Positions 1,951 through 59,556 of a DNA stretch of 64,000 nucleotides are shown here, in pieces. The position numbers were made by a program, and so were the translations under genes. The stretch covers positions 119,848,531 through 119,912,530 of the forward strand of contig NC_090383.1 of the NCBI RefSeq assembly GCF_036365525.1, in the 5' to 3' direction. Source of the stretch: Heterodontus francisci. Taxonomy: Eukaryota. The first letter of the stretch is position 1. Every line of letters begins with the position of its first letter. The notes under the pieces were generated by a model that saw nothing but the letters and a program-made list of their open reading frames with translations, was not told where the DNA came from and did no database searches.

Positions 1951-2020
1951 ATGAGTCGTCTCTATGTTTCACTCGCTCTTTTCATCATGTTACTTGCTGC
2001 TGCTCGGGGTTTTACAGATG
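1951..2020 (+). CDS. B7/butyrophilin-like IgV-IgC-TM gene, coding exon 1 (signal peptide MSRLYVSLALFIMLLAAARGFTD)
   Basis: Pyrimidine tract and TAGCAG acceptor just before the ATG at 1951, hydrophobic leader, G|GTGAGT donor at 2021; phase 1 matches the next exon. Confidence 0.85.
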
Positions 2021-2533: not shown

Positions 2534-2881
2534 GTGATTTTAAGGTTAAATGTGCAGAGGAACAAATGACAGTGAAGATCGGCGAAGATCTTGTTGTCCA
2601 TTGCCATTACTATTCTGCAGATGAAGCCGGCACCATTGCATTCAGCTGGATGAAGATGGATTCTAATGGGATAATCTACATTTACACAATGAACCAGAGC
2701 AGCCTGGGAGAGCAGGACCCGAGCTACCGAGACAGAGCCGAGGTCTTTGACAGCGAGATCCCTAAAGGGAATGTGTCCCTGAGATTGAAGAATGTGACTC
2801 TTTCTGACTCAGGAATCTACAGACTCTCTGTTGCCAGCCAATCACAAAGTAATGAGACCAAAGTTGTGTTAGAAGTAAGAG
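2534..2881 (+). CDS. B7/butyrophilin-like gene, exon 2 (IgV domain)
   Basis: tttgttacag acceptor and G|GTAGGG donor, phase 1-1. Translation has GEDLVVHC, FSW, EQDPSYRDRAEVF, GNVSLRLKNVTLSDSGIY, typical of B7/BTN/MOG V domains. Confidence 0.93.
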
Positions 2882-5296: not shown

Positions 5297-5581
5297 CTGT
5301 CGGTAAGCAGCCGGTCATCCGCTCTTACGTTACTGATCAGGGTTTCTCCATGCTGGTCTGTGAATCGTCCGGATGGTATCCAGAGCCAACTGTGACCTGG
5401 GAGAACGGGCTTGGAATGCAGCTGACCAAATATGCACGCACGGAGACAATCAACGATACGGGTGGGATTATCCACCTGAGGAGCACGATTGGGTTAGACC
5501 ATGGGCCAATCAGCAATTACACCTGCACCATGATGGATCAACACTTGAATGAAGCGGTCTCCTTTGTCTTTGTTGTTCTGA
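5297..5581 (+). CDS. B7/butyrophilin-like gene, exon 3 (IgC domain)
   Basis: ttccctcacag acceptor and A|GTGAGT donor, phase 1-1. AVGKQPVI...LVCESSGWYPEPTVTW...NYTC is the B7/BTN C-domain signature, with both Cys present. Confidence 0.93.
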
Positions 5582-5879
5582 GTGAGTATGGAAGCAAAGT
5601 CTTTAACAGCATGTGAAATGATCTAGCTAAGGTGTGTCTGTCGCCTGTGCAGTTCCCCTCAGCAGCTATAATCACATTAAGTGAAGGTTGCATCATAGCA
5701 CAGTCTGTAGACTGCTTGTTGGTTCACATTGTGTGAGAGGAGCCTCCTGTTTTTTTTTTGAGGTACCGATGCCCAACAAGAATGTTGTGTATCCAAGTTT
5801 GCTGCTGATACTGAGTTAGAAAGCACAGTAAACTGTGTGGATGGGAGCAGCAAGTTACAAAGGGACATAGTACTACGTA

Positions 5880-6823
5880 CATACGAATATATACATTAGG
5901 AGCAGAAGTAGGCCATTCGGCCCCTCTAGCCTGCTCCACCATCCAATATGATCATGGCTGATCTGTTTGTGTTTTGAATTCGACAACTTATGTCACAGGT
6001 GGCAAAGTGGTATTGTCACTGGACTAGTAACCCAGGGTATTGCTCTGGGGACATGGGTTCAAATCCTATCACAGCAGAAAGTGGAATTTGAATTCAATTA
6101 ATAAATCTGGAATTAAAAAAAAGTTAGTCTAATGATGGCCATGAAACCATTGTCAATTGTTGTAAAAATCCATCTGGTTCACTAATGTCCTTTAGGGAAG
6201 GAAATCTGCTGTCCTTACCTGGTCTGGCCTAGATGTGACTCCAGACCCACAGCAATGTGGTTGACTCTTACATGCCCTCTGAAATGGCCTAGCAAGCCAC
6301 TCAGTTAGGGCAATTAGGGATGGGCAATAAATGCTGGCCTGGCCAGTGATGCCCACATCCCATGAATGAATAAATAAAAAAAAGAACTCGCATCTACCCC
6401 CGATAACCCTCGATTCCCTTGCGTAACAAGAATCTATCTACCTCCGCCTTAAAAATATTCAATGACCCCGCCTCCACCACCTTCTCAAGCAGAGAGTTCC
6501 AAAGTTGCACAACCCTGTGAGAGAAAAAAATTCTCCTCATCTCTGTCCTACAAGGGCGACCCCTAATTTTAAAACAGTGCCCCCTAGTTCTGGACTCACC
6601 CACAAGAGGAAACATCCTTTCCACATCCACCTTGTCAAGACTGTCCAGGATCTTATAAACTTCAATCAAATCTCCCCTCACTCTTCTAAACTCCAGTGAA
6701 AACAAGCTCAGTCTGTCCAACCTTTCCTCATAAGACAACCCGCTCATTCCAGGTATCAATCTAGTAAACCTCTTCTGAACCGCCTCCAATGCATTCACAT
6801 CCTTCCTTAAATAAGGAGACCAA
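5880..6823 (-). mobile_element. CR1 LINE 3' part (host of a SINE and a second LINE; short remnant resumes 7393-7422)
   Basis: ORF 6394-6798 [24 protein letters not shown]...RGDLIEVYKI is CR1 ORF2 C-terminus. Confidence 0.9.
5998..6383 (+). mobile_element. tRNA-derived SINE with a LINE-shared 3' tail
   Basis: A-box-like TGGCAAAGTGG, B-box GGTTCAAATCC, tail identical to the LINE at 25117-26447, A-rich end; second copy at 36980. Confidence 0.8.
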
Positions 6824-7392
6824 GTTGTACATAATGTTGGTTAGGCCGCATTTGGAGTACTGTGTGCAGTTCTGGTCGCCACACTACAGGAAAGATGTGA
6901 TTAAGCTAGAGAGGGTGCAGATTCACAAGGATGTTGCCTGGTTTGGAGGGCTGGAGTTATAAAGAGAGATTGGATAGGATGGGTCTGTTTTCCCTGGAGC
7001 GAAGGAGGCTGAAAGGGGACATGATAGAGGTATATAAAATTATGAGAGGCATAGATAGAGTAGATAGCCAGAGTCTGTTTCCCATGGTGGGGGTGACTAA
7101 AACTAGAGGGCATAGATTTAAGGTGAGAGGGAGGAGGTTTAAAGGTGATCAAAGGGGTAATTTTTTCACACAAAGAATAGTGGGTATCTGGAATGAGCTG
7201 CCAGAGGAGGTGGTGGAGGCAGGAACAGTAGCAACATTTAAGAGGCATCTGGACAGGTACTTGAATGAGCAAGGCATAGAGGGATATGGAATTAATGCAG
7301 GCAGGTGGGATTAGTATAGATAGGCATTATGGTCGGCATGGACGCGGTGGGCCGAAGGGCCTGTTTCTATGCTGTACGACTCTATGACTCTA
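6824..7392 (+). mobile_element. CR1-clade (HER1-like) LINE 3' fragment
   Basis: ORF 6931-7314 (ERRRLKGDMIEVYKIMRG...TRGH); 3' tail gggccgaagggcctgtttctatgctgt followed by (gactctat) repeats, shared with the SINE at 46851. Confidence 0.88.
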
Positions 7393-7624
7393 AAACTACA
7401 CACAGTATTCGAGATGTGGTCTCGGATTAAGTAAATGAGCAAAACTGATTTCGGTTGGAATTCAATGTGTGGAAGTGTGACAACATCCACTTTAGATTCC
7501 TAGAAGTTGAGGAATAGCAAGGGATGTGGAGCAAAGTCAAATAAATAGTTAAAGTTATGGATCAGCAGTGATTTAATTGATTTTTGGAGCAGTCTTGAGA
7601 GACTGAATGGCCATTTTCTATTCA

Positions 7625-7840
7625 CAGAATCACAGAATAATACAGTGCAGAAGAGGCCCTTCGGCCCATCGAGTCTGCACCGATACATTAAAACACCTGA
7701 CCTGTCTACCTAATCCCATTTGCCAGCACTTGGCCCATAGCCTTGAATGTTATGACGTGCCAAGTGCTCATCCAGGTACTTTTTAAAGGATGTGAGGCGA
7801 CCTGCCTCTACCACCCTCCCAGGCAGTGCATTCCAGACCA
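7625..7840 (-). mobile_element. Short CR1-clade 3' tail fragment
   Basis: cacagaatcacagaat tail repeat and ggcccttcggccc hairpin motif. Confidence 0.65.
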
Positions 7841-8199
7841 TATTCCGATAGTATAATCACTGGGCATAAACGACAGTAAGAAGTATATTGTTTGGGAAAA
7901 GGCCAGTGTCCCTGAAATTGGATCAATCCTGCCAATCATAATTTGTTTTGGCGAAGGATCAAGGAGGGAGGGTAGCCAGAGGAGGGAAGGGGATGGTACA
8001 TGAGGGGAGCTTGCTGCAGGCCTGTACTGAAGTCAGGGCTATATAGGCAGGGATGGTGGGAGTAAGTGGCTGGCCTCTGCAAGAGTTCCTGCTTATCCCT
8101 GTTGAGAGACGCATGTGGAGGGCCAAAGTGTGAGTGGGGCAGGAGGCTGAAAAGAGTTGGAGAGACAGCCATGTTTGATGTGGGATTATTGGCAGATCT

Positions 8200-8610
8200 C
8201 TGCTGGAGCGTTATGCAACAAAATTTAACATGCAGCCAAGGAATGAGGTCAGGTGACTAAAAGCTTAATCAGTTGTTTCAAGGAGTGTCTTAAAGGAGGA
8301 GAGAGAGGTAGAAAGGGCAGAGCGTTTAGAGAGCTTAGGGACTTGTCAACTGAAGCCACAGCCGCCAGTGGCAGGGTGAAGGAGATTGGGGATGAGCAAG
8401 ACACCAAGAGAGAGTACAGAGACATTGGAAGGTTGTGGGACTGGAGGAAGTTACAGAGATGGAGAGGGGTGAGAGCCATGCAGGGATTTGAAAATAAGGA
8501 TGAGAATTTTAAAATCAAGGTCACGGATCGGGAGCCCGTGTAGGTCAGCGAGCACAGGGATGGTGGGTGAATGGGACTTGGTGAGAGTTAGGATATGGGC
8601 AGCTAGAGTA
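8200..8610 (-). mobile_element. L2 LINE 3' fragment
   Basis: Homologous to 20760-21130 (LILKFSSLFSNPCMA-type region). Confidence 0.7.
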
Positions 8611-9078
8611 TGTGTGGCTTTGAAATGTTAAATTAATATTAAAATAAAAGCTGCAGATGGAATGAGGAAGTAAAGATTGAGTGAAGTAAAGAGGACAGCA
8701 GTCTGAGGTAGTGACTGAAAGAAAGGAAAGAGTAAATTCTCTGTCGCTGCTGTACATAATCCAGCTTTCTGCTGAAGTTACAGCAGCATAGCAGGAACAT
8801 CCAAGAGAGAATTCAACCCAGAGTGTGCTTTAGACACATCATACCTCAAGCCAATTGGAATGGAATCTGAGTGGTGGTCAACCCAGCAATGTGCACCCCC
8901 AGCTGAGATTGCAATGCTGCAGCTTCAAAGTTGCAACAATTCCTGACCGAGCAAACAACTGGTATTCAAATTAAAACTAATGGTTTAACTGCTGCACTGT
9001 CTATGACTGCGCAACAACTTCTGTGTTTAATGCTAAATAAAATAAGAATGCTTTTTTTTCTCCCTGCCTCTCTCCCAG

Positions 9079-9170
9079 TTCCAGAAAAACCTTGGCATAT
9101 CGTAGCCGGTACGGTTGGGACCATTATCTGTTCTGTGATTTTGGCTGTTTCCGTTTACTGTAGTTGGTAA
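9079..9170 (+). CDS. B7/butyrophilin-like gene, exon 4 (transmembrane helix and stop): IPEKPWHIVAGTVGTIICSVILAVSVYCSW*
   Basis: Long pyrimidine tract and CAG acceptor at 9078; phase matches exon 3; ~21-aa hydrophobic stretch; TAA at 9168-9170. Joined CDS is 795 nt, 264 aa. Confidence 0.82.
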
Positions 9171-9208
9171 CCAGATGGAAAAGGTGCATGCGGTTTTCTG
9201 CAGTGAGT

Positions 9209-40262: not shown

Positions 40263-40856
40263 ATGGCCACCTCCACATCCCTCACCCTGTCTGAGCACAG
40301 TCTGTCTTGTAGCATCTGCCTGGAATTCTTCACTGACCCTGCCACCTTGCCGTGTGGGCACAGTTTCTGTCAGAACTGTATCAGCAAGCACTGGGAGCAC
40401 CAGGAGCTGGGCCCCGGACTTTACAGCTGCCCAAACTGCCGCAGATGCTTCAAGCCCCGACCCTCTCTGGACAGGAACACGGTGCTGTGTCAGATAGTGG
40501 AGGGATTCCTGCAGGCAGCTCCCAGGCGGGGGTCCCAGCCCCTGGCTGGCCCCAGGGACGTGCCCTGCGACTCCTGCCCTCAGGACCACAAGCTGAAGGC
40601 GGTGAAATCCTGCCTGGTGTGTCTGACCTCGTATTGTGACAGCCACCTGAGACCACACCGGGAGAGCTCGGCGTTCCGGGAACACCAGCTGACCGAGCCG
40701 GTCAGGGACGTGGCTCTCAGGAGATGTCACAAACACAGGAAGCCCCTGGAGTCTTTCTGCCGCACAGACAGAAGGTGTATGTGCTGGGTCTGCGCTCTCA
40801 ATGAACACGGGGACCATGAAATCATCACCGTGGACGAGGAGGCGGCTTATAGACAG
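40263..40856 (+). CDS. finTRIM/TRIM16-25-47-like E3 ligase, exon 1 (RING C3HC4, B-box1, B-box2)
   Basis: agATGg start; CSICLEFFTDPATLPCGHSFCQNC...CPNC; CDSC...AVKSCLVCLTSYC..HL.PH; CHKH...FCRTD..C.C..C...H..H; CAG|GTAATG donor, phase 0. Confidence 0.96.
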
Positions 40857-40866
40857 GTAATGGCAG

Positions 40867-41140
40867 GCTGGAGTCGGGATTCAGATGTGGATTTGGGATC
40901 AGGGAGAGGAGCTGGAGTCGGGATTCAGATGTGGATTTGGGATCAGGGAGAGGAGCTGGAGTCGGGATTCAGATGTGGATTTGGGATCAGGGAGAGGAGC
41001 TGGAGTCGGGATTCAGATGTGGATTTGGGATCAGGGAGAGGAGCTGGAGTCGGGATTCAGATGTGGATTTGGGATCAGGGAGAGGAGCTGGAGTCGGGAT
41101 TCAGATGTGGATTTGGGATTTGGGATCAGGGAGAGGATTT
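40867..41140. repeat. 44-bp minisatellite (~6 copies) at the start of TRIM intron 1
   Basis: Unit gctggagtcgggattcagatgtggatttgggatcagggagagga. Confidence 0.95.
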
Positions 41141-41297
41141 GGGTTGGGGACAAGGACCCATGAAAGGGAAACCAAAATGATGATGATTTTCTGAGGCAGT
41201 GCAGATCTGATTTGGGACATGATCAGTCCCCATGTGTTTTAATGAGGGGTGAAGTTTATAAGGAAATGTAAATCCACTCCAGATCTTATAGGCACTT

Positions 41298-42350
41298 AGA
41301 ACCGTAAGAATATATAAACTTGGAGCAGGAGTGGACCATATGGCCTAGCGAGCCTGCTCCGCTATTCAATATGATCCCTGCAGATCTTAGGCTTCAACTC
41401 CACTTTCCTGCCTGTTCCCCATATCCCTTTGATTCCCCGAGGGACCAAAAATCTGTCTATCCCAGCCTTAAATATAGATTTACAAGGGAGTCAAGGATTA
41501 TAGGGGCAGGCAGGAAAGTGGAGACCACGGTCAGATCAGCTATGATCTTACTGAATGGTGGAGCAGGCTCGAAGGGCTAAATAGACCACTCCTGCTTTTA
41601 ATTGTTATGTTCAATGATGGAGCATTCACAAGCCTCTGGGGTAGAGAATTCTAAAGATTCAGAACCCTGTGAGTGAAGAAATTTCTCCTCATCTCAGTCC
41701 TGAATGATCGACCCCTTATCCTGAGACTGTGTCCCTGTGTTCTAGATTCCCTGGCCTGGGGAAACAACCTCTCAGTGTCTACCCTGTCAAACCCCTTCAG
41801 AACCGTGTATGTTTCAATGAGATCACATCTCATTCTTCTAAACCTCAGAGAGTATCGGCCCAATTTATTCAGCCTCTCATTGAACAACCCTCTTATCCCA
41901 GGCACCAATCTAGCAGACATTCATTCTACTGCATCCAAGGCAACTATATCCTTCTTTAAATATCAAGACCAAAACTGCACACAATACTCCAGATGTGGTC
42001 TCATCAAAGCCCTGTACAATTCTAGTGAGACTTCCTTATTCTTGTACTCCAATCCCATTGCAATAAAGGCCGACATGCCATTTGCCTTCTTTATTATTCC
42101 TGTACCTGCATGCTAACTTTCCATGTTCCTTGCACAAGTACACCAAGTCCCTCTGAACACCAACATTTAAAAGCTTCACGCCTTTTAAAAAATATTCTGT
42201 TTTTCTCTTCTTCCAACCAAAATGAATAACATCACAATTTCCCACATTATACTCCATCTGCCACCTTGTTGCCCCCTCACTTATCCTGTCTATATCTCTT
42301 TGCAGCCTCTTTGTGTCCTCCTCACAGCTTACATTTTCACCCTAGCTTTG
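41298..42350 (-). mobile_element. CR1 3' part, with an opposite-orientation CR1 tail nested at ~41477-41610
   Basis: ORFs 41651-41920 and 42036-42257 carry CR1 ORF2 C-terminal motifs. Confidence 0.85.
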
Positions 42351-42597
42351 TATGGCACTGGATATTGGCAGCTGTTGACAGGTGTCCCTCATTATATAAA
42401 CTGCCTTTCCTGTTTCTTTAAACTAGATATTGCAGACTTGTGACAGTTTTGAGTAAATGTATTTTATTTGGAGAATCCAATAAACAAAGTGTGCAGGAGC
42501 TGAGCTACCTTCAGTTGACTGGATTGAATCTGTTTCGAATACATGAAAGAGGGATGCAAGTGCTCACCATCCTGAGACAAGGAGCACTTGATCACAT

Positions 42598-43972
42598 GTG
42601 CCAGTGCAGTACAGTGCCAGTACAGTATAGTGGCAGAGGATGTACAGTGCCAGTACAGTATAGTGGCAGAGCATGTACAGTATAGTGGCAGAGCAGTACA
42701 GTGCTAGTGTGGTACAGTGCCAGTGTGGTACAGTGCCAGTACAGTATAGTGGCAGAGCATGTACAGTATAGTGGCAGAGCATGTACAGTGCCAGTGCAGT
42801 ACAGTGCCAGTGTGGTACAGTGCCAGTAAAGTATAGTGGCAGAGCATGTACAGTGCTAGTACAGTATAGTGGCAGAGCATGTACAGTATAGTGGCAGTGC
42901 AGTACAGTGCTAGTGTGGTACAGTGCCAGTACAGTATAGTGGCATAGCAGTGCAGTGCCAGTGCAGTACAGTGCCAGTGTGGTACAGTGCCAGTACAGTA
43001 TAGTGGCAGAGCATGTACAGTACAGTGCCAGTGCAGTACAGTACAGTGCCAGTGCAGTACAGTGCCAGTGCAGTACAGTGGCAGAGCATGTACAGTACAG
43101 TGCCAGTGCAGTACAGTGCCAGTACAGTACAGTGCCAGTACAGTACAGTGCCAGTGTGGTACAGTGCCAGTACAGTATAGTGGCAGAGCATGTACAGTAC
43201 AGTGCCAGTACAGTACAGTGCCAGTGCAGTACAGTGCCAGTACAGTATAGTGGCAGAGCATGTACAGTGCCAGTACAGTATAGTGGCAGAGCATGTACAG
43301 TGCTAGTGTGGTACAGTGCCAGTACAGTATAGTGGCATAGCAGTACAGTGCCAGTGTGGTACAGTGCCAGTGTGGTACAGTGCCAGTACAGTATAGTGGC
43401 AGAGCATGTACAGTACAGTGCCAGTGCAGTACAGTACAGTGCCAGTACAGTATAGTGGCAGAGCATGTACAGTATAGTGGCAGAGCATGTACAGTGCCAG
43501 TACAGTATAGTGGCAGAGCATGTACAGTGCTAGTGTGGTACAGTGCCAGTACAGTATAGTGGCAGAGCAGTACAGTGCTAGTGTGGTACAGTGCCAGTAC
43601 GGTATAGTGGCAGAGCAGTACAGTGCTAGTGTGGTACAGTGCCAGTGCAGTATAGTGGCAGAGCAGTACAGTGCTAGTGTGGTACAGTGCCAGTACAGTA
43701 TAGTGGCAGAGCAGTACAGTGCCAGTACAGTATAGTGGCAGAGCAGCACAGTGCCAGTGCAGTACAGTGTCAGTAAAGTATAGTGGCAGAGCAGTACAGT
43801 GCCAGTGCAGTGCAGTGCCAGTACAGTGTAGTGGCAGAGCAGTACAGTGCCAGTGCAGTACAGTGCCAGTACAGTATAGTGGCAGAGCAGTACAGTGCGT
43901 GTGTGGTACAGTGCCAGTGCAGTATAGTGGCAGAGCAGTACAGTGCTTGTGTGGTACAGTGCCAGTACAGTA
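42598..43972. repeat. Low-complexity composite tandem repeat of 5-11 bp modules
   Basis: cagta / cagtgc / tatagtggcagagc / gtgtggta modules in shuffled order. Confidence 0.95.
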
Positions 43973-43994
43973 TATTGGCATATTGGTATATATA

Positions 43995-44960
43995 TGGGAG
44001 TCAGTGGGGGCTTATAGTGAATATCTGTAGATAGCCTATCCACAGAAATGGAGACAGAGAAGCCCAGGAAGGGAAGGGAAGAGTCAGAGATGGACCATGT
44101 GAAGGTGAGAGAAGGATGGAAATTGGAAACAAAGTTGATGCAATTTTCCAGTTCAGGACGAGAGCAGGAAACGGCATTGATACAATCATCAATGTATCAG
44201 AAAAAGGTGAGGGAGGGGACCTGAGTAGGACTGGAACAAAGAATGTTCTACCTATCCCATTGAAAAGGCTGCATAGCTTGGACACATACAGGTTCCCATA
44301 GCAACACCTTTTATTTGGAGGAAGTGAGTGGAGCCAAAGGAGAAGTTGTTTTAATGTGAGAATAAGTTTGGCCAGATGGGGGAGGGTGGTGTTGGATGGG
44401 GACAGGTTGGGCCTGCTTCAAGGAAGAAATTGAGAGCCCTCAGCCTGTCCTGGTAGGGGATGGAGGTGTAGAGGGATTGGACATCCGTGGTGAAAAGGAG
44501 ATAGTTAGCGCTGGGAAACTGGAAACTGTTTAAGTGGTGGAGGTCTTTGGAAGAGTCATGGGGTGTAGGTGGGAAGAGACTGGAAAAGGGAAGATAACAT
44601 GGAGTTTGAGTGAGGAAGAAATCAGTTCAGTGGGACAGGGGGCTGAAACAATGGTTCTTCTGTTTGTGGATCTTTGGGAGGAAGTAAAAGTGTTTTGGGG
44701 TCTATAAGGTTGGAGATCGTGGTTAGAGGATCTCCAGAGAAGCTGAGGTTAATCAATATCCTGATATTCAGTGGTGGGTTGGTGGTTCAGGGGATTTAAG
44801 AAAAGGTGTCGGACAGATGGTGTTCTGTTCGCCAAACAACAACACACTGCCCTTGTCAGCAGGTTTAATGACAATGTTTGGGTTGCACTTGAGAGTATGA
44901 AATGCTGCAAGTTCAGAGGGAGGGAGGGGAGTAGAGATGTCATGATGGAATGACAATGAA
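43995..44960 (-). mobile_element. Penelope-like element RT fragment
   Basis: Minus-strand motifs [22 protein letters not shown]-like region near 44295-44325, SLPFL...DRLSTDIHYKP. Confidence 0.78.
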
Positions 44961-45049
44961 AAGATCAAGAGAAGATAAGAGGCCAGAGGGATCTAGGTGG
45001 AATGGGTGGTCCATTGCTGTGTACTGCCAGTGATGTACAGCATAGTATT

Positions 45050-45290
45050 GCGCACCCCGAGTTTAATCACTCCACCATTCGGGGCCATGCCTTCAGCTGC
45101 CCTAAGCTCTGGAATTCCCTCCCTAAACCTCTCCACTTCCCTTTCCTCTTTTAAGACTCTTCTTTAAAATCCACCTCTTTGACCAGGTTTTTGGTCACCA
45201 GTCCTAATATCTCCTTATGTAGCTCAATGTCAAATTGTATCGGATAATGTTCCTGTGTAGTGCCTTTAAAGGTGCTATATCAATGCAGTG
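45050..45290 (+). mobile_element. L2 3' fragment
   Basis: gccttcagctgcc..ctctggaattccctccctaaacc...taaaggtgctatatcaatgca. Confidence 0.75.
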
Positions 45291-45607
45291 TTTGAAGTAT
45301 CAGTATTGTATCTGTCACATGAGATGTTCAACCAAGTCCCCTTCTGCCCTTTCAGGTGGGTGTAAAGATTCCATGGTAATCTTTTAAATCAGGAAGAGAT
45401 TTGACCAATCTTTATCGCTCAACTAATGCAAATGATGTGGTTGTTGATGTCAAGGCCAGTGCGAGGGGGATGGGTTTCTGTCAGTGGGGGCGAAGGTGGG
45501 GGCATTGGGTGGGAATTGTGTCAGTGAGTGGGGGCATTCTCGTGAGGGGGTGGCTGAGTAGCTCATGCACAGAGTGTCTGAATAAAGTTCTCTTCACTTT
45601 TGCACAG

Positions 45608-45703
45608 AAACTAATCACGGCCCGGAAGATGGAATTACAGGAACACCTGCAGAGCACGGCCGAAGAGATTGGAAAATGGAAACAAAATATTGATTGCATC
45701 AAG
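45608..45703 (+). CDS. TRIM gene exon 2 (coiled coil, 96 nt)
   Basis: ttcacttttgcacag acceptor, AAG|GTGAGT donor, phase 0-0; KLITARKMELQEHLQSTAEEIGKWKQNIDCIK. Confidence 0.92.
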
Positions 45704-46151
45704 GTGAGTGCCTGACAGTCTGGGTACGTGTTTGTTTTGTGGCCATGTTTTATAAATCCTTCAATGTAATCCCAGATATAGAAACCTTCAAACAGGTAAA
45801 GCAGGCAGCACTGTGAGAGTAGAAAAGAGGATGGATTTTTCACAAACGCTAACCAGGACCCCCATAACCCCACCAATAACACCCTCTGCACCCCACCCCC
45901 CGCCACTGGCTCATGGGGCTTTTGCGCCTCCTGAGCTGCCCCTCAGTGAATCACATGATGCACCAAACAATCTTGCCCTCTAGATCAAGCTAATGAAGTC
46001 TTCCCTCATTCGCAATTAAGATTCAAAATTCAGTGTGTGAGGGAATCACCTCTCGGACAAACCCTTAAATCCCAGAGGATCCGAATTCCTTAACTCACCA
46101 GTGTCTCAAAGAGTGGAGGCTTAGAGGGTGGGTAACTGATGCTTTGACCAG

Positions 46152-47509
46152 TGTTACAACCAAGGCGGGAGGAGTGCACTGTTAATTCAGTCCCACTTCT
46201 CCACAGGTCTCAACATATTCTTTAAATTTTCCCACTAACTGACACAGCCAATCAGATACACTATTTCCCCCCAGAATAGAACACACTAACCAGGTTTCTT
46301 TACTGAACAACAAAATTAACAGTTTGTCATAGAACAAGTCTTAACAAGTAATGATGTAAAACAATATCACATTGATCAAATTTTATGAAAATTCAAATTA
46401 AATTTTAGAAAGACCCCTTTACCTTAGTCCCTTCGTACTCACACACACAGATATATTCCAGTTAACTGAAGAAAAAGTTTAAAAAAATATTTTTAGATCA
46501 GAGCTGTTTTACAGACAAAACAAAACACACTCGAGCAGATCACTTGCCCACTCCTGAAAAAAAAATAACAGATGAGACACAGTGCACCAAACTGGCACAC
46601 AGTCCAACCGCCAAGCAACTGTTAAAGAACCTTCCAGAATTAGCTGTCTTCAGGCGGCATTGAAAAGCAATTTAGCAGGCCTTGTGATGCAGGAAACAAG
46701 ATGATTTGACTGACTGAACTTCACTGAGTCTTTTAGGAAATTGTGAGAAACGAGCTGGGTTGTGGTCTTCTGTTCTTCCTTGGAATTCTCTCCCTTTTCT
46801 GTCCTTTTTTGACTCTTTAGCAGCACTTGATTTTTCTCTTCCTCCAGAATGGGCGGCACAGTGGCGCAGTGGTTAGCACCGCAGCCTCACAGCTCCAGGG
46901 ACCCGGGTTCGATTCTGGGTACTGCCTGTGCGGAGTTTGCAAGTTCTCCCTGTGTCTGCGTGGGTTTCCTCCGGGTGCTCCGGTTTCCTCCCACATGCCA
47001 AAGACTTGCAGGTTGATAGGTTAATTGGCCATTATAAATTGCCCCTAGTATAGGTAGGTGGTAGGGAAATATATAGGGACAGGTGGGGATGTGATAGGAA
47101 TATGGGATTAGTGTAGGATTAGTATAAATGGGTGGTTGATGGTCGGCACAGACTCGGTGGGCCGAAGGGCCTGTTTCAGTGCTGTATCTCTGATCTGAAC
47201 TGAACTAATGTATCACACACACACTGACTAACAACCAAACAGTTTGGCAGTTTTCTACCCACCCAGATGTTCTGTTGCTGCTAGGCTTGTCCAATCAAAG
47301 GAATGCCTGTTGATTTCTGTCCCATTGCCATGGCTTCTGCTCTAAGCCTAGTTCGAGCCAGGTAACAAATAGCAGCACTGTTGCCAATCGGCTCCCTCAC
47401 TGACCCCTTGATTTTTTTTAAAAAACTGATCCAACATTTATTTAGTTTAACTATAAATTCCTTTTTTTTAAAAAGTATTTTTTAACAAAGGAGAGCCAAT
47501 TTCATAACA
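46152..47509. mobile_element. Possible solo LTR or other TG...CA-bounded element hosting the SINE below
   Basis: Bounded by TGTTA...TAACA short inverted ends, non-coding; no clear TSD. Confidence 0.3.
46851..47192 (+). mobile_element. Full-length HE1/V-SINE-type tRNA-derived SINE
   Basis: A box TGGCGCAGTGG, B box GGTTCGATTC, V-domain tgcgtgggtttcctccgggtgctccggtttcctcccaca, CR1/HER1-type tail. Confidence 0.9.
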
Positions 47510-47531
47510 CATGCACTGGGATAAATGAGAT

Positions 47532-48220
47532 ACTGACCAGTCACTGGGACCAAGTGATTCTGACCAGAAGATAACTGACCAGTCACTGGGAGCGAGTGGT
47601 ACTGACCAAGGGGTAACTGATCAGTCACGGGGAGTGAGTGGTACTGACCAGGAAGTAACTGACCGGTCACTGGGAGCGAGTGGTACTGACCAGAAGGAAA
47701 CTGACTGACCACTGGGAGTGATTGGTACTGACCAGGAAGTGGGTGACTGGTCATTGGGAGCGTGCCATACTGACCAGGAAGTAACTGACCGGTCACTGGG
47801 ACTGAGTGATGCTGACCAGGGGGTGGGTGACTGATTGCTGACTGAGGGATGGGGCAGGGGGATGGGGGCAAGAGGAGAGTAACACAGAGGGAGTGACACA
47901 GACAGGGAAGTGGGGAGTGACACTTTAGGGGGAAAGACACTGGGGAGTGATAGGTGAGAGGGAGGGGGTAATGACACTGGGATGGGGAGGAAAACATTGG
48001 GTGAGTGACAGTGGGAGGGGCATAAAGCAAGTGACCAGTTGCTAGAAGTGAGTGACACTGACGGGGTGGGATGGGGGTCAGGGAAGGGGAGAGTGACACT
48101 GGGAGGGGGTGGGGGGGGTGGGTGATGGGAGGGGATTGGGAGTGATTGGTTGCTGGAAGTGAATGGTACTGACCAGGGGTGTTGGGGGGAATGGGGAGTG
48201 ACACTGACTGGGGAGGGTGA
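47532..48220. repeat. Degenerate ~43-bp tandem repeat grading into G-rich sequence
   Basis: tgaccagtcactgggagcgagtggtactgaccaggaagtaac variants. Confidence 0.8.
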
Positions 48221-48426
48221 TCGCCTGCTGGGTGGTGTGTGGGTATGAGTGACTCTGGTCTAATGTATCCCCCTATGTGTAAATGCACTATCCTTCCTCA
48301 TGCTGATGATGTGGGACTTAGTACTGGGTACTGATGACTATCCCATCACTGTGGCCCCATATCCTAGCATTCCAAAACACACAGCTTGAGGAGTCTAATG
48401 GAATGTTCTATCCCTGTCCTGTGCAG

Positions 48427-48660
48427 GAATCTGCTCAAAGAGTGAAGGGTGCCGCCGTGAGTAAATTCACTGAGTTACTCCGAGCAGTGGAGAAGGCACA
48501 GAGTGAAGTGATGGAGTTTATTGAGAGGGAGCAACGAGCGGAGCTAAAACAGGCTGAAGCTGCCAAGAAAGAACTGGAACAGAAATGGACGGAGCTGAGA
48601 CACGAGAAGGTGCGGCTGGAAGCTCTGTCCAAGACCAATGACAGCATTTACATCACACAG
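48427..48660 (+). CDS. TRIM gene exon 3 (coiled coil, 234 nt)
   Basis: cctgtgcag acceptor, CAG|GTAAGA donor, phase 0-0; ESAQRVKGAAVSKFTELLRAVEKAQSEVMEFIE...LSKTNDSIYITQ. Confidence 0.94.
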
Positions 48661-49594
48661 GTAAGATACACAGAAGCTGGACAAGAGGCAGGAGTGGAGG
48701 AGGAGTGGGGGCAGAGGGTATATGAAGGGTTTGACTGTATTATCTGTTGTGTGCAGTGGTGGAAACCTGGGATGGTACTGAGCACTGTTGTTGATTCAGC
48801 AAGGACAACATTCAACCTCGATCTGATAAAGGAAAGATTCCTGTTCAGTTTTATTTTAATCCAGTTCCATGCACAGTGTCACATACACACACAGACACAA
48901 TCTCTGCATTACTTTCTATTCCAAAGAAACTCTAGCTTTTGAATTTGGGAAGTTTCCTCCGGGAATTCGGTCTGCTCATTTGTCCTTGCTCTGACCCCTT
49001 CCCAATTTCCCTGATGTAAAGTAATTGTGAGTATTTGGATGGGTCACTCATGGTTCTAGCGGGATGTCAGAGTGGCACCTTGCCCATTCCGGAGGGGTGA
49101 GGTGGGGATTGGTCTAGTGTAAGTGTTAATCTGAAAGTTGTTTGCCTCATCTTTGTTGCTGTGCAGCTGTCTCATTCTGATTGGATACAGGATTGTGGGG
49201 TCCACATGGCAATGACCCTGCCTCCAGTCTGACATCACAGTAGGGGAGGGGTCAAGAATGCTCCACACCTCCTTTCTCAGAGTTTCTTATTACTGGTAAA
49301 TGGGGTGAAAACTCTTACTGTCTGCTCCCGCTGTGCTGAAATTACCCTATCCCCAAAACTATTTCAGGAATTTCAGCGGTGCCAACTTTGGGAGTTTGTG
49401 CCCAACACTGTTGGGTGCCAAAAGGGCCTGGAGATGAGAGCAGTTGAAGAAACTAAACACAGCAGCAAAACGTTCTTCCGAGACAGGAAATGAGTGGTTA
49501 GAACACTCTTCGATAAAAGTGGTGGTGAACTTTAGGATCAGATAAATTATGAATAATTTCTAGAGTAATTCACTGATGATAACTCAAATATAAA

Positions 49595-50010
49595 AGAAAG
49601 AACTTGCCTTTCACACCCTGAGGATGTCCCCAATCCTTTCATAGATAATGAAGTGTGGTCAAGCTCTTATAGTGCAGGACCTGTGACAGCCAATCTGTGC
49701 ACAGCAACAGCAATGTGATAATGACCCCAAAATCAGTTTCTCGTGATGTTGATTGAGGGATATATATTGGTCAAGACACTGGGGCAACTCCCCTGCTCTT
49801 CTTCAAATAGTGCCCTGGGATCTTTGTATTCACCTGAGAGAACTTTGGTTTAATGTTTCATCAGAAGGATGGCACCTCTGGCAGTACTACACACCCTCAG
49901 TACTGCACTGGAGTATCAGCCTCAAATCTCCCAAATCCTGGAGTGGGCCTTCAACCCATGACCATCTGATCCAGAGGTGTAAGTGCCACCCACTGAACCA
50001 CAGCTGACAT
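49595..50010 (-). mobile_element. Deu-domain SINE (SacSINE1/AmnSINE-like)
   Basis: acagccaat.tgtgcacagcaa...aatgtgataatgacc...gatgttgattgagggata; homologous to 59078-59270 and 60080-60470. Confidence 0.65.
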
Positions 50011-50212
50011 CTTCATTCAGTTGTTGTCTGGGTAATTTTGGCAGCACATGGCTGTGCAGAGGCTCATGTTGCTCGGGACGTCCTTCACAAGCACAGTGTG
50101 ATTATTTATTTTCTATTTGGATGGGGACCTGTGCAGCAAATTCCTCAGGATTTAACACAGATTGCTGAACGGAGCTACATTTTAACATTTCCAACCCACC
50201 TGTCATTCTCAG

Positions 50213-50384
50213 GAATATCTGACTTTTAATGCAATCGCAGAGAATCCCACCTCACCACCTTCAACAACAGGCCTGCACACAAAACTTGGCAAGGTCGAGA
50301 GAGCTATTGAAAGACTGTCTGCTCTTATCAAAGAGCATTTCCAATCTGCGTGGATGAAGAATCTGGAGAATACAACTTCCACAG
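50213..50384 (+). CDS. TRIM gene exon 4 (linker, 172 nt)
   Basis: tgtcattctcag acceptor, CAG|GTCAGT donor, open phase 0-1; EYLTFNAIAE...KVERAIERLSALIKEHF... Confidence 0.82.
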
Positions 50385-51197
50385 GTCAGTCACCGGGCAC
50401 ATTCCCTTCCTAACTTAAATAAGGCACATTGCCCAAATTGCCGAGGCTGATTTAACCCTTGCAGGAATATCAGATCTCCACAACTGCTGCTTGTAAATGG
50501 GTCAGTGACAATGAAGGCTCTTGCATGTTAGCTGTTGAGACCACTCCCAATTATCAGCACCTTTTAGGAGGGGGTCTCAATAGCAGGGTCCCAGTTAAAG
50601 ACGGACCTGGACAATTAGGTGACCTTTTAAAGAGGGAGTCTCACTATCAGAAGAGGAAATCTGGTTGTCAGGATCCCATTTATTCTCCTTCACTTTCCTC
50701 TCTTACCCTTTCTTCCCAAGCAATAGGGAAAGGATCCGAAATAAGCACTGATTGCCTCAAACGTCCCCATTCTTCAGCTTTGAGTATGGATAGAGAAATG
50801 CTGACTGTTTGTTCACCCATGGGTGACAGTCAATAAGAAGCTCACTATTGTCCCTATTCAATATCTACACAAGGCCACATCTCAGTAGAACTTCTGGATA
50901 ACAAGTTGAAGCAAATCCCTGTTTTGCAGCCACATGAAAAGATTAATTTAATATTTCTGCAAGTTTTATGAAGGGATTTCTTTCAAGAGTCAGCAGGTGG
51001 TTTATTCAGTGAGACCCCACCCTTTACCTCCCAACCAGTTTAACTTCTCGCAATCCAGTTGATACGAGGACCAAATCCACAGAACAACATTGCTCACAAT
51101 CCTAAACAGATTGTCACTCAGAAAATCTCACTCAGAGAGGCCAGTGTGATGGAAAATGTAAAACTCACATGGCTGAAGTAGAGTGTACTCTTTGAAC

Positions 51198-51373
51198 AGC
51201 GTAGAGGGAGCTTTACTCTGTATCTAACCCCCATGCTGTCCCTGTCCTGGGAGTGTTTGATAGGGACAGTGTAGAGGGAGCTTTACTCTGTATCTAACCC
51301 CCATGCTGTCCCTGTCCTGGGAGTGTTTGATGGGGACAGTGTAGAGGGAGCTTTACTCTGTATCTAACCCTGT
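51198..51373. repeat. ~70-bp tandem repeat, left half (target of the Tx1 element)
   Basis: gtagagggagctttactctgtatctaacccccatgctgtccctgtcctgggagtgtttgatggggacagt x2.5. Confidence 0.92.
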
Positions 51374-54300
51374 TTTTTTCTTCTTTTTTAAAAAATCTTT
51401 TTTTTATAAGGTGGCCTTCATACCCCAGACCACTTTGATATATTTTATGTCGAGGGGGCCTTTATTCCTCAGGGCCCCTTGAGATACATTTTTGAAAAGT
51501 AACTTTATTAAAATCAAATGAACAAAAAACTCAAATTAAATTGCCATTCTTGGTGTCGACAATGTACTCCAGTCCCTGCGGTGCCCACCGGTCACGGAAG
51601 GCCTCAAGCCTACCGGCTGACACCGCATGTTCCTTCTCCAAGGACACGCGGGCATGAACGTAGCCGCGGAAGAGGGGCAGGCAATCGGGAAGGACGGACC
51701 CCCCGACAGCCCGCAGCCTGGACCTGTGAATTGCCACCTTGGCCAGACGCAGGAACAGACCAACGAGGAGATCCTCCTCCCGGCCCAAGCCCCTCCTCAC
51801 TGGGTGCCCAAAGATCAGGAGCGTGGGACTGAAGTGCAGCCAGAACCTGAGGAGCAGCCCCTTCAAATAGTTAAAGAGGGACTGCAACCTCGCACACTCC
51901 ATATATACATGGAACATGGACTCGTCCAGGCCGCAGAAAGTACAGGTGGCCTGGGAGTCCGTGAACCTACTTAAAAGTCGATTGCACGGGACTGCTCTGT
52001 GCAGCACCCTCCACCCCAGGTCCCCGATATAAAGGGGGAAGACTCCCACGTAGAGAGACCTCCATCGAGGTTTTCCCTCGCTGTCAGATGGCAACGCGAA
52101 CTGCCAGGGCGTGTCCGGCCGGCTGACGAGGGCGAGGAAGTGAAGAGTGTGCAGGAGCTGCCCGTACAGGAAACCCCTCCGCGCCGATTGGAATGGCACG
52201 GATGGCATTTCCGAGAGGCGGCTCGGGTTGTGCGGGACCGGCTCCCGAGGAGGGGTTCGGGGCCTAGGTCTGATGAGCAGTTCTGGACGAGCGAGGGTCA
52301 GCTCGGCCATGAGCGCTCTGCTCTCCCGAGCCCCCTCGCCACCCGCAGTGAGGGGCGTCCTGGGTGCTTCGACTACTCCTCCGCCCGCCGGTCCGTCCCC
52401 GGAGTCGGCCACCCGGACATCCGAAGCGCTCTCCTCCGCCAGCGGGGGAGCGCCCTGACTGGAGGCGACCATGTTCCAGACTCGGAATCGATCCCGGTAA
52501 AAGACAGGCAACTCCCTCAGAGAGGTGCGGCTAACGGTCTCCACTGGGAGCTGCGTGTCATCTTGAAAGCAGTGACACAGGCGGAAAAAATACGCCGCCA
52601 GCGCATACCATCTGGGAGGACGCTCGACGTACAGGTATCTCTGCAGGGTCTGAAGGCGGAGAGTCGCAGCCTGGGTGCGGACGCACACCAGCAACTGGCC
52701 ACCCTCCTCGATCAGGAGACTCAGGACCGCGGCAGAGACCCAGTGTTTCCTCTTGCCCCAGAAGAAATCGATGACTTTCTTCTGGACCTTGGTGGCAATG
52801 CAGGGGGCGGGGCCAAAGTGACCAACCGGTACCACAGCATCGAGGCCCCATTTCTCCCAATTGATCCTCGCGGAGGATGCGGCAGAAAAGGTCTGCTGGC
52901 AGTCGCGCATCCTCCGCAAGTCAACAGGATCTGTGAACGCGAGGAGCATGTCGTCGGCGTAAGCCGAGAGGACGACCCGCATGGCCGGCTCGCGCAGAGC
53001 CAATCCCGTCAACCTCCTGCGAAGCAGGCACAGGAAGGGCTCCACGCAGATGGTATACAATTGGCCGGACATGGGGCTTCCCTGACGCACTCCTCTCCCA
53101 AAGCGAAGGGGCGCCGTCAGGGACCCGTTAACCTTGACTAGACACTCTGCGGCGGCGTATAAAAGTCGGACCCGGGCCACGAAATGCGGCCCGAGTCCGA
53201 AAGCGCGCAGAGTCCCGAAAAGGTATTCATAGAAACATAGAAAATAGGAGCAGGAGTAGGCCATTCGGTCCTTTGAGCCTGCTCAGTCTGTCATTGTGAT
53301 CATGGCTGATCATCCAACTCAGTAACCTGTTCCCACTTTCGCCCCATACCCTTTGATCCCTTTAGACCCAAGAGCTATATCTAACTCCTTCTTGAAAACA
53401 TACAATGTTTTGGCCTCAACTGCTTTCTGTGGTAGCGAATTCCACAGGTTCACCACTGTCTGGGTGAAGAAATTTCTCCTCTTCTCAGTCCTGAAAGGTT
53501 TACCCTGTATCCTTAGACTATGACCCTTGGTTCTGCCCCCCCCCCCCCCACCATTGGGAACATCCTTCCTGCCAAGTCTTGTTAGAATTGTATAGGTTGC
53601 TATGAGATCCCCCATCACTCTTCTGAACTCCAGCGAATATAATCCGAACCGACTCAATCTCTCCTCATACGTCAGTCCCGCCATCCCAGGAATCAGTTTG
53701 GTAAACCTTCGCTGCGCTCCCTCTAACGCAAGAATATCCTTCCTCAGATAAGGAGACCAAAACTGCACACAATATTCCAGGTGTGGCCTCACCAAGGCCT
53801 TTGATTCCCTTGCCTAACAAGAACCTATCAACCTCCACCTTAAAAATATTCAATGACCCTGCCTCCACCACCTTCTGAGGTAGAAGAAGGGTGAAGTGTG
53901 GTCCAAATCTTCCAGGATCTGGATCCGCGACCTCACGTATGCGCCTCAGGACCCTATGAGCTGTAGGTCCCTCAGCGCACCCTTCTTCTCTTTGTACGCC
54001 TGCCACAGGGCCGGGTCCACGACGGCATGACTGAGGCGGGACTCCAAGTCGAGCACCTCCCTCTTTAGGCGCCCAATCTCGGCTTCCCGCCTCTTGGTCG
54101 ACCCCGTCGTGTACTCCTGACAGACGACGCGGATGTGAGTCTTGCCCAGATCCCACCATAGCCTCAAGGAGGGGAAGCCCCCCTGCTTCCTTCTCCAGTC
54201 GGCCCAGAATCGATGGAACGAATCCCGGAATCACTTGACCTCCAGTGAACTCCACCCACACCAGGTGGTGGTCCAAGCACAGAACCAGCTGCGTGGAGGC

Positions 54301-57300
54301 TGCTGAGATGCGGGAGACATGCACCTGAGAAATGTAGAGGAGGTCAATTCAGGACCCTCCTCCTCCAGATCTCAATCTGAAGGCACTGGAGTCGGGATGG
54401 AGATTCCGCCAGACGTCCACCAAGTTGAGGGAGCTGATCAGTTCCCTCAACTTCTCCACCAATGCTTGGCCGCGCTGGGGACTGGAGCGATCGCTCACCT
54501 TGAGGGTGCAGTTAAAATTCTTCCCGAGAATGATGCATTCGCCGCTATAGATAGAGCTCAAGAGAGCGGACACTTCTTTAATGAAGCGCGCTTGCAACGC
54601 GCCGGGTCTGGGCGCGTACACGTTCACAAAGTGGAGCGGCACGCTACCCAGGCGTACGGCAAGGTGGAGCAAACAGCCTGGCCCGAGCTCCTTGACCCCC
54701 AAGATCTCTGGATGAAAAGTTGGGGCTAACAAGATAGCCATCCCACTAGAAATAGGGGTGCGAAGACTCATGTAGACCCCAAACTGCCACTCCAGGAGCT
54801 AGGTGACTTCGTCTCCCTGAATTGTGTGGGTTTCCTGCAGAAAGCTCACCGCGTATCTCCCTTCCCTGAGGACTGAGAGATTGTGAAATCTACGGAGAGA
54901 CCATCTGCTGCCGTTGATGTTGAGGCTGGCTATGGTTATCTTCATATCAAAGGTACTTAAAAACCATCACCAACACCTCACTGTGAGGAGGGATCAAAAG
55001 CGCATCTTGCCCTCCACTCCCCCAGCAACCTATTGAGGAACGCGTTAAACCGGTGCCTCTCAATCAGTTTCACGCCCACACCCTTCCCCACCTTCTTGAG
55101 GGTGGCACAGACAGACAGGATGATTCGCGCTCGTCTCGACCAGCGGCTGAGGGCCAGCTGAACTTCACTGCGGCAACCCCTGCATGCCACGAGGAAGTTC
55201 TGGAGTTCCGCGGTGGGGATGAGAGGAGACTCAGTGGGAGGCACGAGGGAGTCCACTGCCTCACTGGCGATGAATTCAAGGTCGTCCTCCGTGCCCCACA
55301 CCGAGTCCCCATCTTCCTGCAGGTCATCACTGCCAGTGGCCGCCACATTCACTACATACGTTGGGGCAAATGCCCCGGCTGCACCAGCTGGTCCCGCCTC
55401 CATCATGATCTCACCCCCAGGATTGATGGCGGAGGAGTCCTCTCTGGGTTCTTCTGTGAAACTGGAGCCTATGGGTGCCAAAAGTTCAGGGCCCCCCTCC
55501 ATCACCGTCCCCAGGCCCACGAGCGACCCAGGGGAGATAGTAGTTCCCAGACTCCGGAAATCCAGCCGGAGCCGGGACCGGAGGCAGAGAGAGGAGGTCA
55601 TTTCCCACACGCCAGCGCCCACTGGCCCAGCAGATGGGGCAACATTTTCAACCATAACTGGGTCGGGTACATCATGGTCCGGAGTGGATTTTGACTGGGA
55701 AGGCTGAACCTTTGGGGCCTCGCCCTCCCCTTCACTCAAGGCACCCGACCCAGTGGCAGAATGGGAGGCTTCTTCAGGAACGTCCCCAGGCTCCCCCACC
55801 ACATGCAGGGCTCCACTTGCTCGTTCAGGAGGGGCCACATGTACAGGGGTCTTCCCCTCCCCTCCATCCTAAGGGGTAGGGTGCTCCTGCCCAGACTTTA
55901 CAGCCTTGATGGTGGTGGTGGCAGGGGGAATCTGGGGATTCGAACCAGGAGACAGCTCCCCTCCAGTAGATGGGCCCTGCACCTCATGGCCCTGTGTTCC
56001 CTCTGTGGACGGGTGCCTTCTCCTCTTTTTCCCACTGGGCCGCGGAGGCACAGAGACTGCCATGTCATCAGGGGCCTCCACCACTGCACTCTCCTTTTGC
56101 CTGGTTACCTTCGGCCTGCGCCCAGCCCTGGGGCAAGCGGGTTCCCTGGGATCGGGCCTTAGGCTGAGCCCATGCTTGGGTTGTGCCACGGTGTCCAGGG
56201 GACAAGCCTCTCGGTGTTTATTCTTTCTCCGCGTCTTCCCTCCACTCGGACGGGCTCTCGCCTCCGTGCTGGAGGCCGTGAAAACCACAGCCTCCAGAAC
56301 CGCCTGAGCGGTGTCTGTTGGAGGTGTAGGGGGGGTGGGAGGGGGCGCAGCGGGGCCACCCTGGGCTGCCAAAGTGGAGTTGGCGGCTGGGAGGTTGGGA
56401 CAGTTCTTTCGAACATGCCCCACCCCCTTGCAAGCATGGCACCACGCCCCGTCCAAGGTCCAGAAGACACGGTAGGTCGTCTCCTGGAACTGAACAGCAA
56501 AATGGCTCTCTGACACCACATCCCGCGCCAGCTGTATGAATAGCTGGCGGCGGAAGGAGTAGACATGTCGGAGGCTGTTCTCCCGAAGGCCGAGTGGGAC
56601 TGGGGTGATTCCCAACCTCACCTCCCCCAGATGGTGCAGGTGGGGGAGGAGGAGCTCATTGGGAATAAAGGGCGGGATGTTCGATAGAATCACATGCTGT
56701 GCAGTGGCCTCCAGAGGGTCCACTGGCAGGAAAGTCCCGCCCACGGTGAGCCCCCTGCTCAGGGCCAGGGCCACTGCCCACTCAGTCTTCAGGATAAACA
56801 CTGCCTTCCCGTACATCTTTGAGGCTGCAACAATAGCCAAGGGGCCGACAATCTCAGCCATTGCCTTAACGCATGCCTCAGTAGTCATGGTTGGGTGGGT
56901 GTAACTCTTCACCCCAAGCTTTGAAGTGAAGATTTTAAATGGTGACGGAGATACAGGAGTGGCTGCAGCATAGGAAGGTCCCTCCACTGGAGAGGACTGT
57001 GAAGCCATGGGGTAGAAGAGTCACACCCACCGTTAAATAAAATAGAGTTTGAGAGAAAGGAGAAATAAAATAATCATGACAAGTAGTCCCACAAATAGTT
57101 TGCTGGGGGGGTTATCACGGGGGAGAGAGGCTGAAGGACAGGAAGGCCAGGAGGAATCATTCTCTTTGCAGATCTTATTTTCAAGGCAGTCCTTTCACTG
57201 GTCTTCCAGTTGTGGTGGCGGGGAGGGAGTGTGATGTCTCCACCTGGGATGGCTGTAAGCTCTCCGGGCACACTCTGCTTCTGGTATTGAGGGAAAACAG

Positions 57301-57710
57301 AAAAGAGAAAGTTTCTTCACCTGGGCAGCCCCAGCTATCCCGGGCTAGGTCGTTGGGGTGGGGAGGGAGCTCCCTGTTCGATGCTGTTAAACACAGGAGC
57401 TCCCTCTCCAAACAGCCCCACCCAAGGTCTTCAGGTCTCTTCTTTCCCCCTCCCCACAACAATCAATGAAAGGGCTTCAAAAAAACAAACTCACAAGAGC
57501 TGTCAGTTCTTTTGGCCTCTTGTTTTCCTCTTTTGTAGACAGGGATAGATGGAAAAATCTTCCTTAAAGTCTCAGTCTTCCTTTTACAGCAGTCACACAG
57601 CCTCCAGCTCCCAGCCTCCAACTCACAGTCAACAATCAGCAGTCAGCTGAGACTCATTGTGCACACACAGTCAGTGGTCCCAATCAGGCAGCAGCCAACC
57701 CAGTTTTTTT
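51374..57710 (-). mobile_element. Near-full-length Tx1-clade non-LTR retrotransposon (ORF1 + ORF2, disrupted), antisense in TRIM intron 4
   Basis: ORF1 57008-54978 (frameshift ~55850) with zinc knuckle CHACKGVGHVRKNC. ORF2 starts at 54945 (MKITIASLNING..., APE) with RT GVRQGSPMSGQLY / YADD and C-terminal CTFC...H....C, ending at 51531. T-rich (poly-A) end at 51374; CpG-rich. Confidence 0.92.
53227..53880 (-). mobile_element. Two joined CR1 3' fragments inserted in Tx1 ORF2
   Basis: catagaaacatagaaa tail, ORF 53319-53795 [14 protein letters not shown]...; 53798-53880 matches 6410-6490. Confidence 0.88.
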
Positions 57711-59487: not shown

Positions 59488-59556
59488 CATGTAGACCCTG
59501 GACTGCTGCCTTTGCCTCACATTCTCAGCAGCCCTGACCTGTTATATTTCCTGCAG

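Follow-up and report, generated by a model that had tools for sequence, protein, structure and literature searches.

Structure of gene A

The window analyzed here is a 64,000-nucleotide stretch of Heterodontus francisci DNA. Near its start lies a gene, called gene A below, with four coding exons for a signal peptide, an IgV domain, an IgC domain, and a transmembrane segment, and with no cytoplasmic tail. It encodes a protein of 264 residues that matches RefSeq XP_067901707.1 of H. francisci exactly, a record that carries the automatic name "butyrophilin-like protein 8." Exon 2, bounded by AG and GT, has an open frame from position 2536, where our numbering of domain residues starts. The features are as follows, in window positions.

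1951..2020, + strand: exon 1, coding part; signal peptide, with ATG and GT donor, matching protein P0001; contigs from 3 of the 4 runs join it to 2534
2534..2881, + strand: exon 2; B7-type IgV domain (Pfam V-set, E value 2.8e-14)
2551..2553, + strand: Cys6 (precursor Cys30), TGT; final residue of strand A, clade-invariant, in strand E2-6 of both models
2602..2604, + strand: Cys23 (precursor Cys47), TGC; canonical B-strand cysteine, invariant, in strand E23-27 of both models
2647..2649, + strand: Trp38
2668..2838, + strand: tract (codons 45 to 101, strands C' to F) homogenized with the head-to-head paralog B; 7 differences in 171 bases
2824..2826, + strand: Leu97 (precursor Leu121), CTC; canonical F-strand cysteine site, same codon across read contigs
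5297..5581, + strand: exon 3; B7/butyrophilin-type IgC domain with canonical cysteine pair (Pfam C2-set_3, E value 2.5e-14); contigs from all 4 runs contain both of its joints
9079..9170, + strand: exon 4, coding part; transmembrane segment (hydrophobicity scan) and then stop, matching the P0001 C terminus; joint from 5581 to 9079, TAA at 9168 to 9170

V-set domains normally have a disulfide between strands B and F, their most conserved feature. In exon 2 the F-strand motif reads DSGIYRL, with a CTC codon two substitutions away from TGC, and Cys6 and Cys23 are the sole cysteines of the domain. The codons confirm the original prediction, made from this stretch, that the F-strand cysteine is missing, that the B-strand cysteine and the tryptophan are kept, and that an A-strand cysteine has been added. 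All four sequons that it listed are also present, at precursor residues N77, N103, N110, and N130. In domain numbering, N79 and N86 are invariant in the clade described below, and N53 and N106 occur in 7 and 3 of its 44 domains, respectively. As judged from these motifs, the predicted glycosylation sites of the domain are ordinary.

Contigs assembled from sequencing reads revealed all three coding joints spliced at GT..AG in four runs of one sample; these runs are RNA only by guess, none being recorded as RNA, and our case for splicing relies on the joints themselves. The sole difference listed in the IgV exon of these same-species contigs was a synonymous A>G at 2811. In a related organism (three runs, two studies), loose ends of the contigs match exons 1 and 3, and CTC and both cysteine codons are as in H. 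francisci. The two copies of exon 2 show seven differences, five of which change an amino acid, a small sample. Three neighboring amino acid changes fall in the BC loop (2626 to 2634), and a sequon at N49 (position 2681) that is kept by 33 of 44 clade domains has been lost in H. francisci; these changes are too few for a selection test.

The five amino acid changes in exon 2, few as they are, would fit a decaying pseudogene, and a sequencing error or a private variant could also account for a missing cysteine. However, the frame is open, the joints are spliced in two organisms, the codon is constant in the contigs, and the identical pattern occurs in 18 named species. Comparison of the IgC exons of genes A and B likewise gave a dN of 0.35 versus a dS of 2.6. 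We regard error, decay, or a private variant as exceedingly improbable, in agreement with the original prediction, which had argued against the first two from the codon, the frame, and the splice sites.

At the 3' end, the contig match to exon 4 stops at 9204, before a GT and 34 bases past the stop codon (9168 to 9204). The 3' untranslated region is probably interrupted after 9204 by an intron, which would be near enough to the stop codon to evade nonsense-mediated decay under the usual distance rule. With about three residues between the small-residue site and the hydrophobic segment, a GPI anchor appears disfavored, and a tail-less transmembrane anchor would be the preferred form.

A clade of three genes in sharks and rays

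Gene A has close relatives nearby. Among 51 genome matches, 30 of which were examined, three have Cys6 and Cys23 without an F-strand cysteine, one (L017) has all three cysteines, and 26 are canonical. The three paralogs with the A- and B-strand cysteines all lie within 160 kb on contig C13. Paralog B, on the minus strand, stands head to head with gene A; next come a TRIM gene, the gene for an IIGP GTPase, and finally paralog C. Across them the F site holds Leu, Val, or Ile, with Ile in H. francisci paralog C. Paralog C encodes a pair of IgC domains and a tail that is short and basic; although its identity is only 36%, both cysteines are retained. Paralogs A and B are tail-less and co-occur in the nine species compared. 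Both have cysteines within their transmembrane segments, and the IgC domain of paralog B (L044:7172-7453, minus strand) contains an additional pair of cysteines, which is maintained across the B rows of alignment A1.

To avoid circularity, we defined the clade by IgC domain score alone and ignored the cysteines. Forty-three records scored above 100 bits, with the next at 66; two lacked an IgV domain and 41 had one. All 42 IgV domains in this census, from 17 named shark and ray species, have Cys6 and Cys23 and no F-strand cysteine, with Leu (39) or Val (3) at position 97. Because the records include isoforms, species are the better count, and orthologs with the pattern were found in 13 named sharks and 5 named batoids. 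Alignment of elasmobranch orthologs and paralogs showed the pattern throughout, and no ortholog in it has an F-strand cysteine.

IgV trees supported the clade at 100/97 (86 rows) and 99/93 (35 rows). In both, it fell outside the butyrophilin cluster of contig C29 with moderate support (90/93 and 82/91). The trees comprise 115 columns, too few to fix the sister group of the clade, and an AU test did not reject joining it to the three-cysteine butyrophilins (P = 0.258). Two of the latter, L017 and P0165, formed a pair (support 100/99 and 100/98) inside the butyrophilin cluster, away from the clade. Being nested there, they were set aside as a direct intermediate, yet the AU result leaves a sister relationship unrejected. 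No chimaera or bony-fish relatives of the clade surfaced among the 7993 candidates scored in a word-limited search, in which scores fell from 261 to 145 bits; the best 150 of 7176 rows in a second protein listing were mostly multidomain proteins, so that an absence outside sharks and rays would be tentative. These analyses confirm that the pattern belongs to an intact three-member B7-like clade retained across sharks and rays rather than to an error or decay, and the distinct B7-like subfamily that had been proposed from a single exon is borne out.

Both cysteines are invariant in all rows of alignments A2 (23/23) and A7 (26/26). They lie within residues 1 to 44, where paralogs A and B are otherwise diverged (approximately 41% identical), so that their conservation is not due to chance. 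Thirty-two of the 44 clade domains contain no cysteine beyond these two, and the extra cysteines elsewhere are scattered; no shared cysteine position on strand E or G was found in the 44 domains. We therefore rejected a Siglec-like B-E pairing and an A-G pairing for the clade, as cysteines are absent at those sites.

The second part of the domain has a different history. In H. francisci, paralogs A and B differ at 7 of 171 bases (pS 0.07) over codons 45 to 101, versus 55 of 132 (pS 0.94) over codons 1 to 44 and 104 of 270 (pS 0.73) in the IgC exon. Across nine species, residues 45 to 104 of A and B are on average 85% identical within a species, compared to 74% between A orthologs and 76% between A and B of different species. 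Residues 1 to 44 show no within-species excess (41% versus 40%). The homogenization is weak in two carcharhiniform species (70% and 63%). From this pattern of identities, we read the tract at 2668 to 2838 as putative gene conversion. Leu97 lies inside the tract, and A and B hence count once for the loss of the F-strand cysteine, with C as an independent witness. Conversion does not account for the conservation of Cys6 and Cys23, both of which fall outside the tract.

A survey of 532 V domains from 181 proteins, a sample biased toward the queries, contained 382 canonical domains, 16 with a cysteine on each of strands A, B, and F, 45 with A and B but not F, and 7 with B alone. The others were partial or lacked the B-strand cysteine; the 61 domains scored without it include many partial alignments and were left out of use. 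The 45 domains comprise 37 from the clade, 7 repeats of one sea bream protein, and 1 partial domain, and in these 181 proteins the two-cysteine A+B state was not encountered outside sharks and rays. The sea bream protein (P0044, Sparus aurata) has tandem V domains in which the F-strand cysteine is missing and strands A, B, E, and G bear cysteines; its loss of the F-strand cysteine was apparently independent, with other pairings. Together, the sea bream repeats and the three-cysteine domains indicate that Cys6 arose more than once in fish B7/butyrophilin-like domains. Five of the 16 three-cysteine domains have a G-strand cysteine at position 108, a different likely partner. Butyrophilin-type IgV domains with the three cysteines were found in a shark (L017:1501-1839, plus strand), in a sawfish (P0165), and in several bony-fish proteins, and domains of the L017/P0165 type, whose cysteines correspond to the KIR2DL4 triad described below, are candidates for a true disulfide switch.

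Predicted fold and a putative disulfide between strands A and B

AlphaFold modeling of the A domain from a 53-row alignment gave a mean pLDDT of 90.8, with PD-L1 as the best fold (Z score 18.7, root mean square deviation 1.7 over 112 residues). A model of the C domain from 26 rows, all clade members, gave a mean pLDDT of 91.1 and again PD-L1 as the best fold (Z score 18.6). The top folds were PD-L1, B7-H4, BTN3A1, and B7-H6, with Z scores of 17 to 19. In both models, strand A spans residues 2 to 6 and strand B residues 23 to 27, equal lengths that fit antiparallel pairing of residue 6 with residue 23, a pairing read from the predicted strand extents.

The spacing of 17 between Cys6 and Cys23 equals that between Gln6 and Cys23 in kappa-like shark light chains; Gln occurs at -17 in 10 of 30 exons and at -16 in 15 others. 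A directly opposed pair at that antibody site is non-hydrogen-bonded, a geometry suited to cross-strand disulfides. The Gln/Glu site is defined as the B-strand cysteine's backbone neighbor in the available text of PMC12051499. In a profile alignment to a lambda-type V domain, Cys6 fell one residue before the conserved Gln, a register that is off by one and counts against the pairing. The clade alignment shows an F2/V4/C6 alternation in which Val4 is near-invariant, which suggests that Cys6 faces inward.

On the basis of these models, we consider it probable that Cys6 and Cys23 form a cross-strand bond within the ABED sheet, that the F site is filled by a hydrophobic residue, and that the GFCC' sheet has lost its covalent tie. 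With a hydrophobic residue in place of the F-strand cysteine, Cys6 would lie directly across from Cys23, both thiols would point into the core, and they would oxidize to the cross-strand bond in the endoplasmic reticulum. Leu, Val, or Ile at position 97 would fill the space beside Trp38, so that packing would hold the two sheets together with no covalent link. The predicted register, the presence of two core cysteines in most members, and a solved precedent in KIR2DL4 all point to this bond.

Strands A, B, and F of the KIR2DL4 D0 domain (PDB 3WYR) each bear a cysteine. Its crystal shows an A-B bond in the -RHStaple form, and according to the available part of that report, the A-B bond is more abundant than the B-F bond and is reduced by PDI (PMC13661046). 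The same text describes the A-B state as not binding HLA-G, an F-strand cysteine mutant as bound by both antibodies tested, and a C74S mutant as forming soluble aggregates (PMC13661046). The aggregates count against the A-B reading. Ig domains thus offer a precedent for an A-B bond, contrary to the novelty implied in the original prediction. KIR2DL4 belongs to a different receptor family, has a spacing of 18 versus 17 in the shark clade, and keeps the F-strand cysteine, switching between two bonds. The triad is absent from exon 2534-2881, with its two cysteines only; without an F-strand cysteine, the shark clade has only the A-B state open to it and resembles a permanent F-cysteine mutant of the KIR2DL4 arrangement.

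Other domains dispense with the B-F bond by different routes. In Siglec V domains, a same-sheet B-E bond replaces it. In CD4 domain 2, a labile interstrand bond within one sheet is described as standing in for the cross-sheet bond (PMC3352085). Both use other strand pairs, and the shark clade has no E-strand cysteine. The I-set domains of Hydractinia Alr proteins are described as lacking the B-F bond, with an A-B disulfide predicted in 28 of 31 models (PMC9546547). Those domains are invertebrate, their A-B bond is known from prediction only, and they have lost both canonical cysteines, so that the B-strand partner is noncanonical.

Two other readings of the cysteine pattern were weighed. In the first, the domain would have no disulfide and would rely on CD2-type hydrophobic packing, with Cys6 and Cys23 kept as small buried residues. 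Position 6 of related domains with an F-strand cysteine does favor small residues (Gly 143, Val 91, Ser 36, Ala 23, and Cys 17). In 11 of the 16 three-cysteine domains Cys6 has no G-strand partner and may be tolerated unpaired, and CD2 is described as a known bond-free exception (PMC12051499). However, none of the 42 clade domains has exchanged either cysteine for Ser, Ala, or Val, despite the low A-B identity nearby. Adjacent thiols passing through the endoplasmic reticulum are also expected to oxidize, and we judge a bond-free domain improbable.

In the second reading, the cysteines would form interchain bonds, giving covalent homodimers, strand-swapped dimers, or heterodimers among the tail-less paralogs or with the tailed C. 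The co-occurrence of the tail-less A and B would suit such pairing. As precedents, CD4 domain 2 is described as forming disulfide-linked dimers once its interstrand bond is reduced (PMC3352085), and the KIR2DL4 cysteine triad as promoting oligomers (PMC13661046). On the other hand, Cys23 occupies the canonical core position, the alternation suggests that Cys6 points inward, and the even number of cysteines in most members leaves an outside partner unneeded. This arrangement likewise seems improbable to us. Of the two mechanisms offered in the original prediction, the A-B disulfide is favored, while free cysteines for covalent dimerization found no support.

A bolder extension of the intrachain A-B bond is that the clade represents a locked form of the KIR2DL4 allosteric state. 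By this analogy, its sole disulfide would be a strained -RHStaple cleavable by PDI or thioredoxin, its members would be redox-switched B7-type checkpoint ligands kept since the shark/ray ancestor, and the butyrophilins with three cysteines in sharks and bony fish would be versions of this device that can switch. We offer this as a speculative and rather unlikely scenario. The clade is a natural test of whether a strained A-B bond can be the only bond of a domain and whether it is redox regulated as in KIR2DL4.

Relationship to known families and neighboring genes

The best PDB sequence hit of exon 2 is B7-H4 (4gos, E value 1.3e-13), a cysteine of which aligns to Leu97. B7-H4/VTCN1 and PD-L1 share an IgV-plus-IgC ectodomain with the gene A product, and B7-H4 also has almost no tail. 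The single hydrophobic transmembrane exon and the membrane-proximal IgC domain conform to the architecture of the B7 family. The canonical B-F pair is absent from the IgV domain, which has Leu97, as it is from 42 of 42 clade domains; for that reason we class gene A as a B7-like variant. It is probably not the B7-H4 ortholog, as exon L029 on contig C10 matches 4gos better (73 bits, versus 54 bits for exon 2534-2881; only those two exons were compared).

Profile matches of the ectodomain were to CD276, BTNL8, BTNL3, and BTN1A1, and the ESM Atlas returned only generic butyrophilin/V-set clusters. The IgC domain is of a type shared with butyrophilins, and the homogenization of the paralogs resembles that described for the IgV domains of hominoid BTN3A genes (PMC6790196). 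Whereas butyrophilins have cytoplasmic heptads and a B30.2 domain, the gene A product stops right after its transmembrane segment, and a search of P0001, P0005, and P0030 gave no hit to a PRY/SPRY (B30.2) domain. The H. francisci butyrophilin cluster is on C29, and gene A is on C13. By tail and location, gene A is thus not a butyrophilin, which corrects the butyrophilin-like (BTNL) label it had been given: the butyrophilin tail is absent, and the gene falls outside that cluster.

The absence of a tail means that the protein would not itself signal, which points to a role as a ligand. By analogy with B7-H4 and PD-L1, it is most likely a surface ligand of a lymphocyte receptor, engaged through the GFCC' face, a proposal that we hold less firmly than the disulfide.

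In the literature searched, we found no account of a B7-type family that is fixed in the A-B state. The available portions of papers on shark butyrophilins (PMC12841164), PD-1/PD-L (PMC12151841), CD28 (PMC11599192), the MHC (PMC10751288), IgSF conservation (PMC13262535), Ig ancestry (PMC11926128), and UrIg2 (PMC12227049) do not mention the clade; earlier mention of these genes in the B7-evolution literature could exist. The bond chemistry is already known, and the new part, as far as the literature searched, is likely to be a B7-type family fixed without the F-strand cysteine. With this clade, the shark B7 repertoire gains an undescribed lineage that has been misnamed and whose binding domain has evolved partly in concert; alone, it does not alter the understanding of adaptive immunity.

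The neighbors found within approximately 260 kb of gene A are the TRIM and IIGP GTPase genes. The TRIM gene (RING, B-box, coiled coil, and PRY-SPRY) is next downstream on the same strand (window 40263 to 60077, plus strand). A tail-less B7 ectodomain adjoining a B30.2 exon is reminiscent of butyrophilin architecture. In the Heptranchias gene model P0007, the gene A ortholog is fused to the TRIM gene, which is probably an annotation artifact. Between the TRIM gene and paralog C lies the interferon-inducible GTPase gene (L051:7531-8757, plus strand; Pfam IIGP, E value 4e-82), and fused models in two carpet sharks (P0018 and P0031) have neighbors identical to those of this GTPase region in H. francisci.

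Farther along C13, at 120.33 to 120.44 Mb and approximately 0.4 Mb from gene A, lie no fewer than five V exons of antibody-like type. They carry a J-type motif joined in the germline and a CDR3 that is very short, and we take them to resemble nonrearranging VJ genes such as PRARP:

L093:2150-2656, antibody-like V exon
L093:9116-9580, antibody-like V exon
L094:8704-9228, antibody-like V exon
L095:4453-4827, antibody-like V exon
L096:7255-7644, antibody-like V exon
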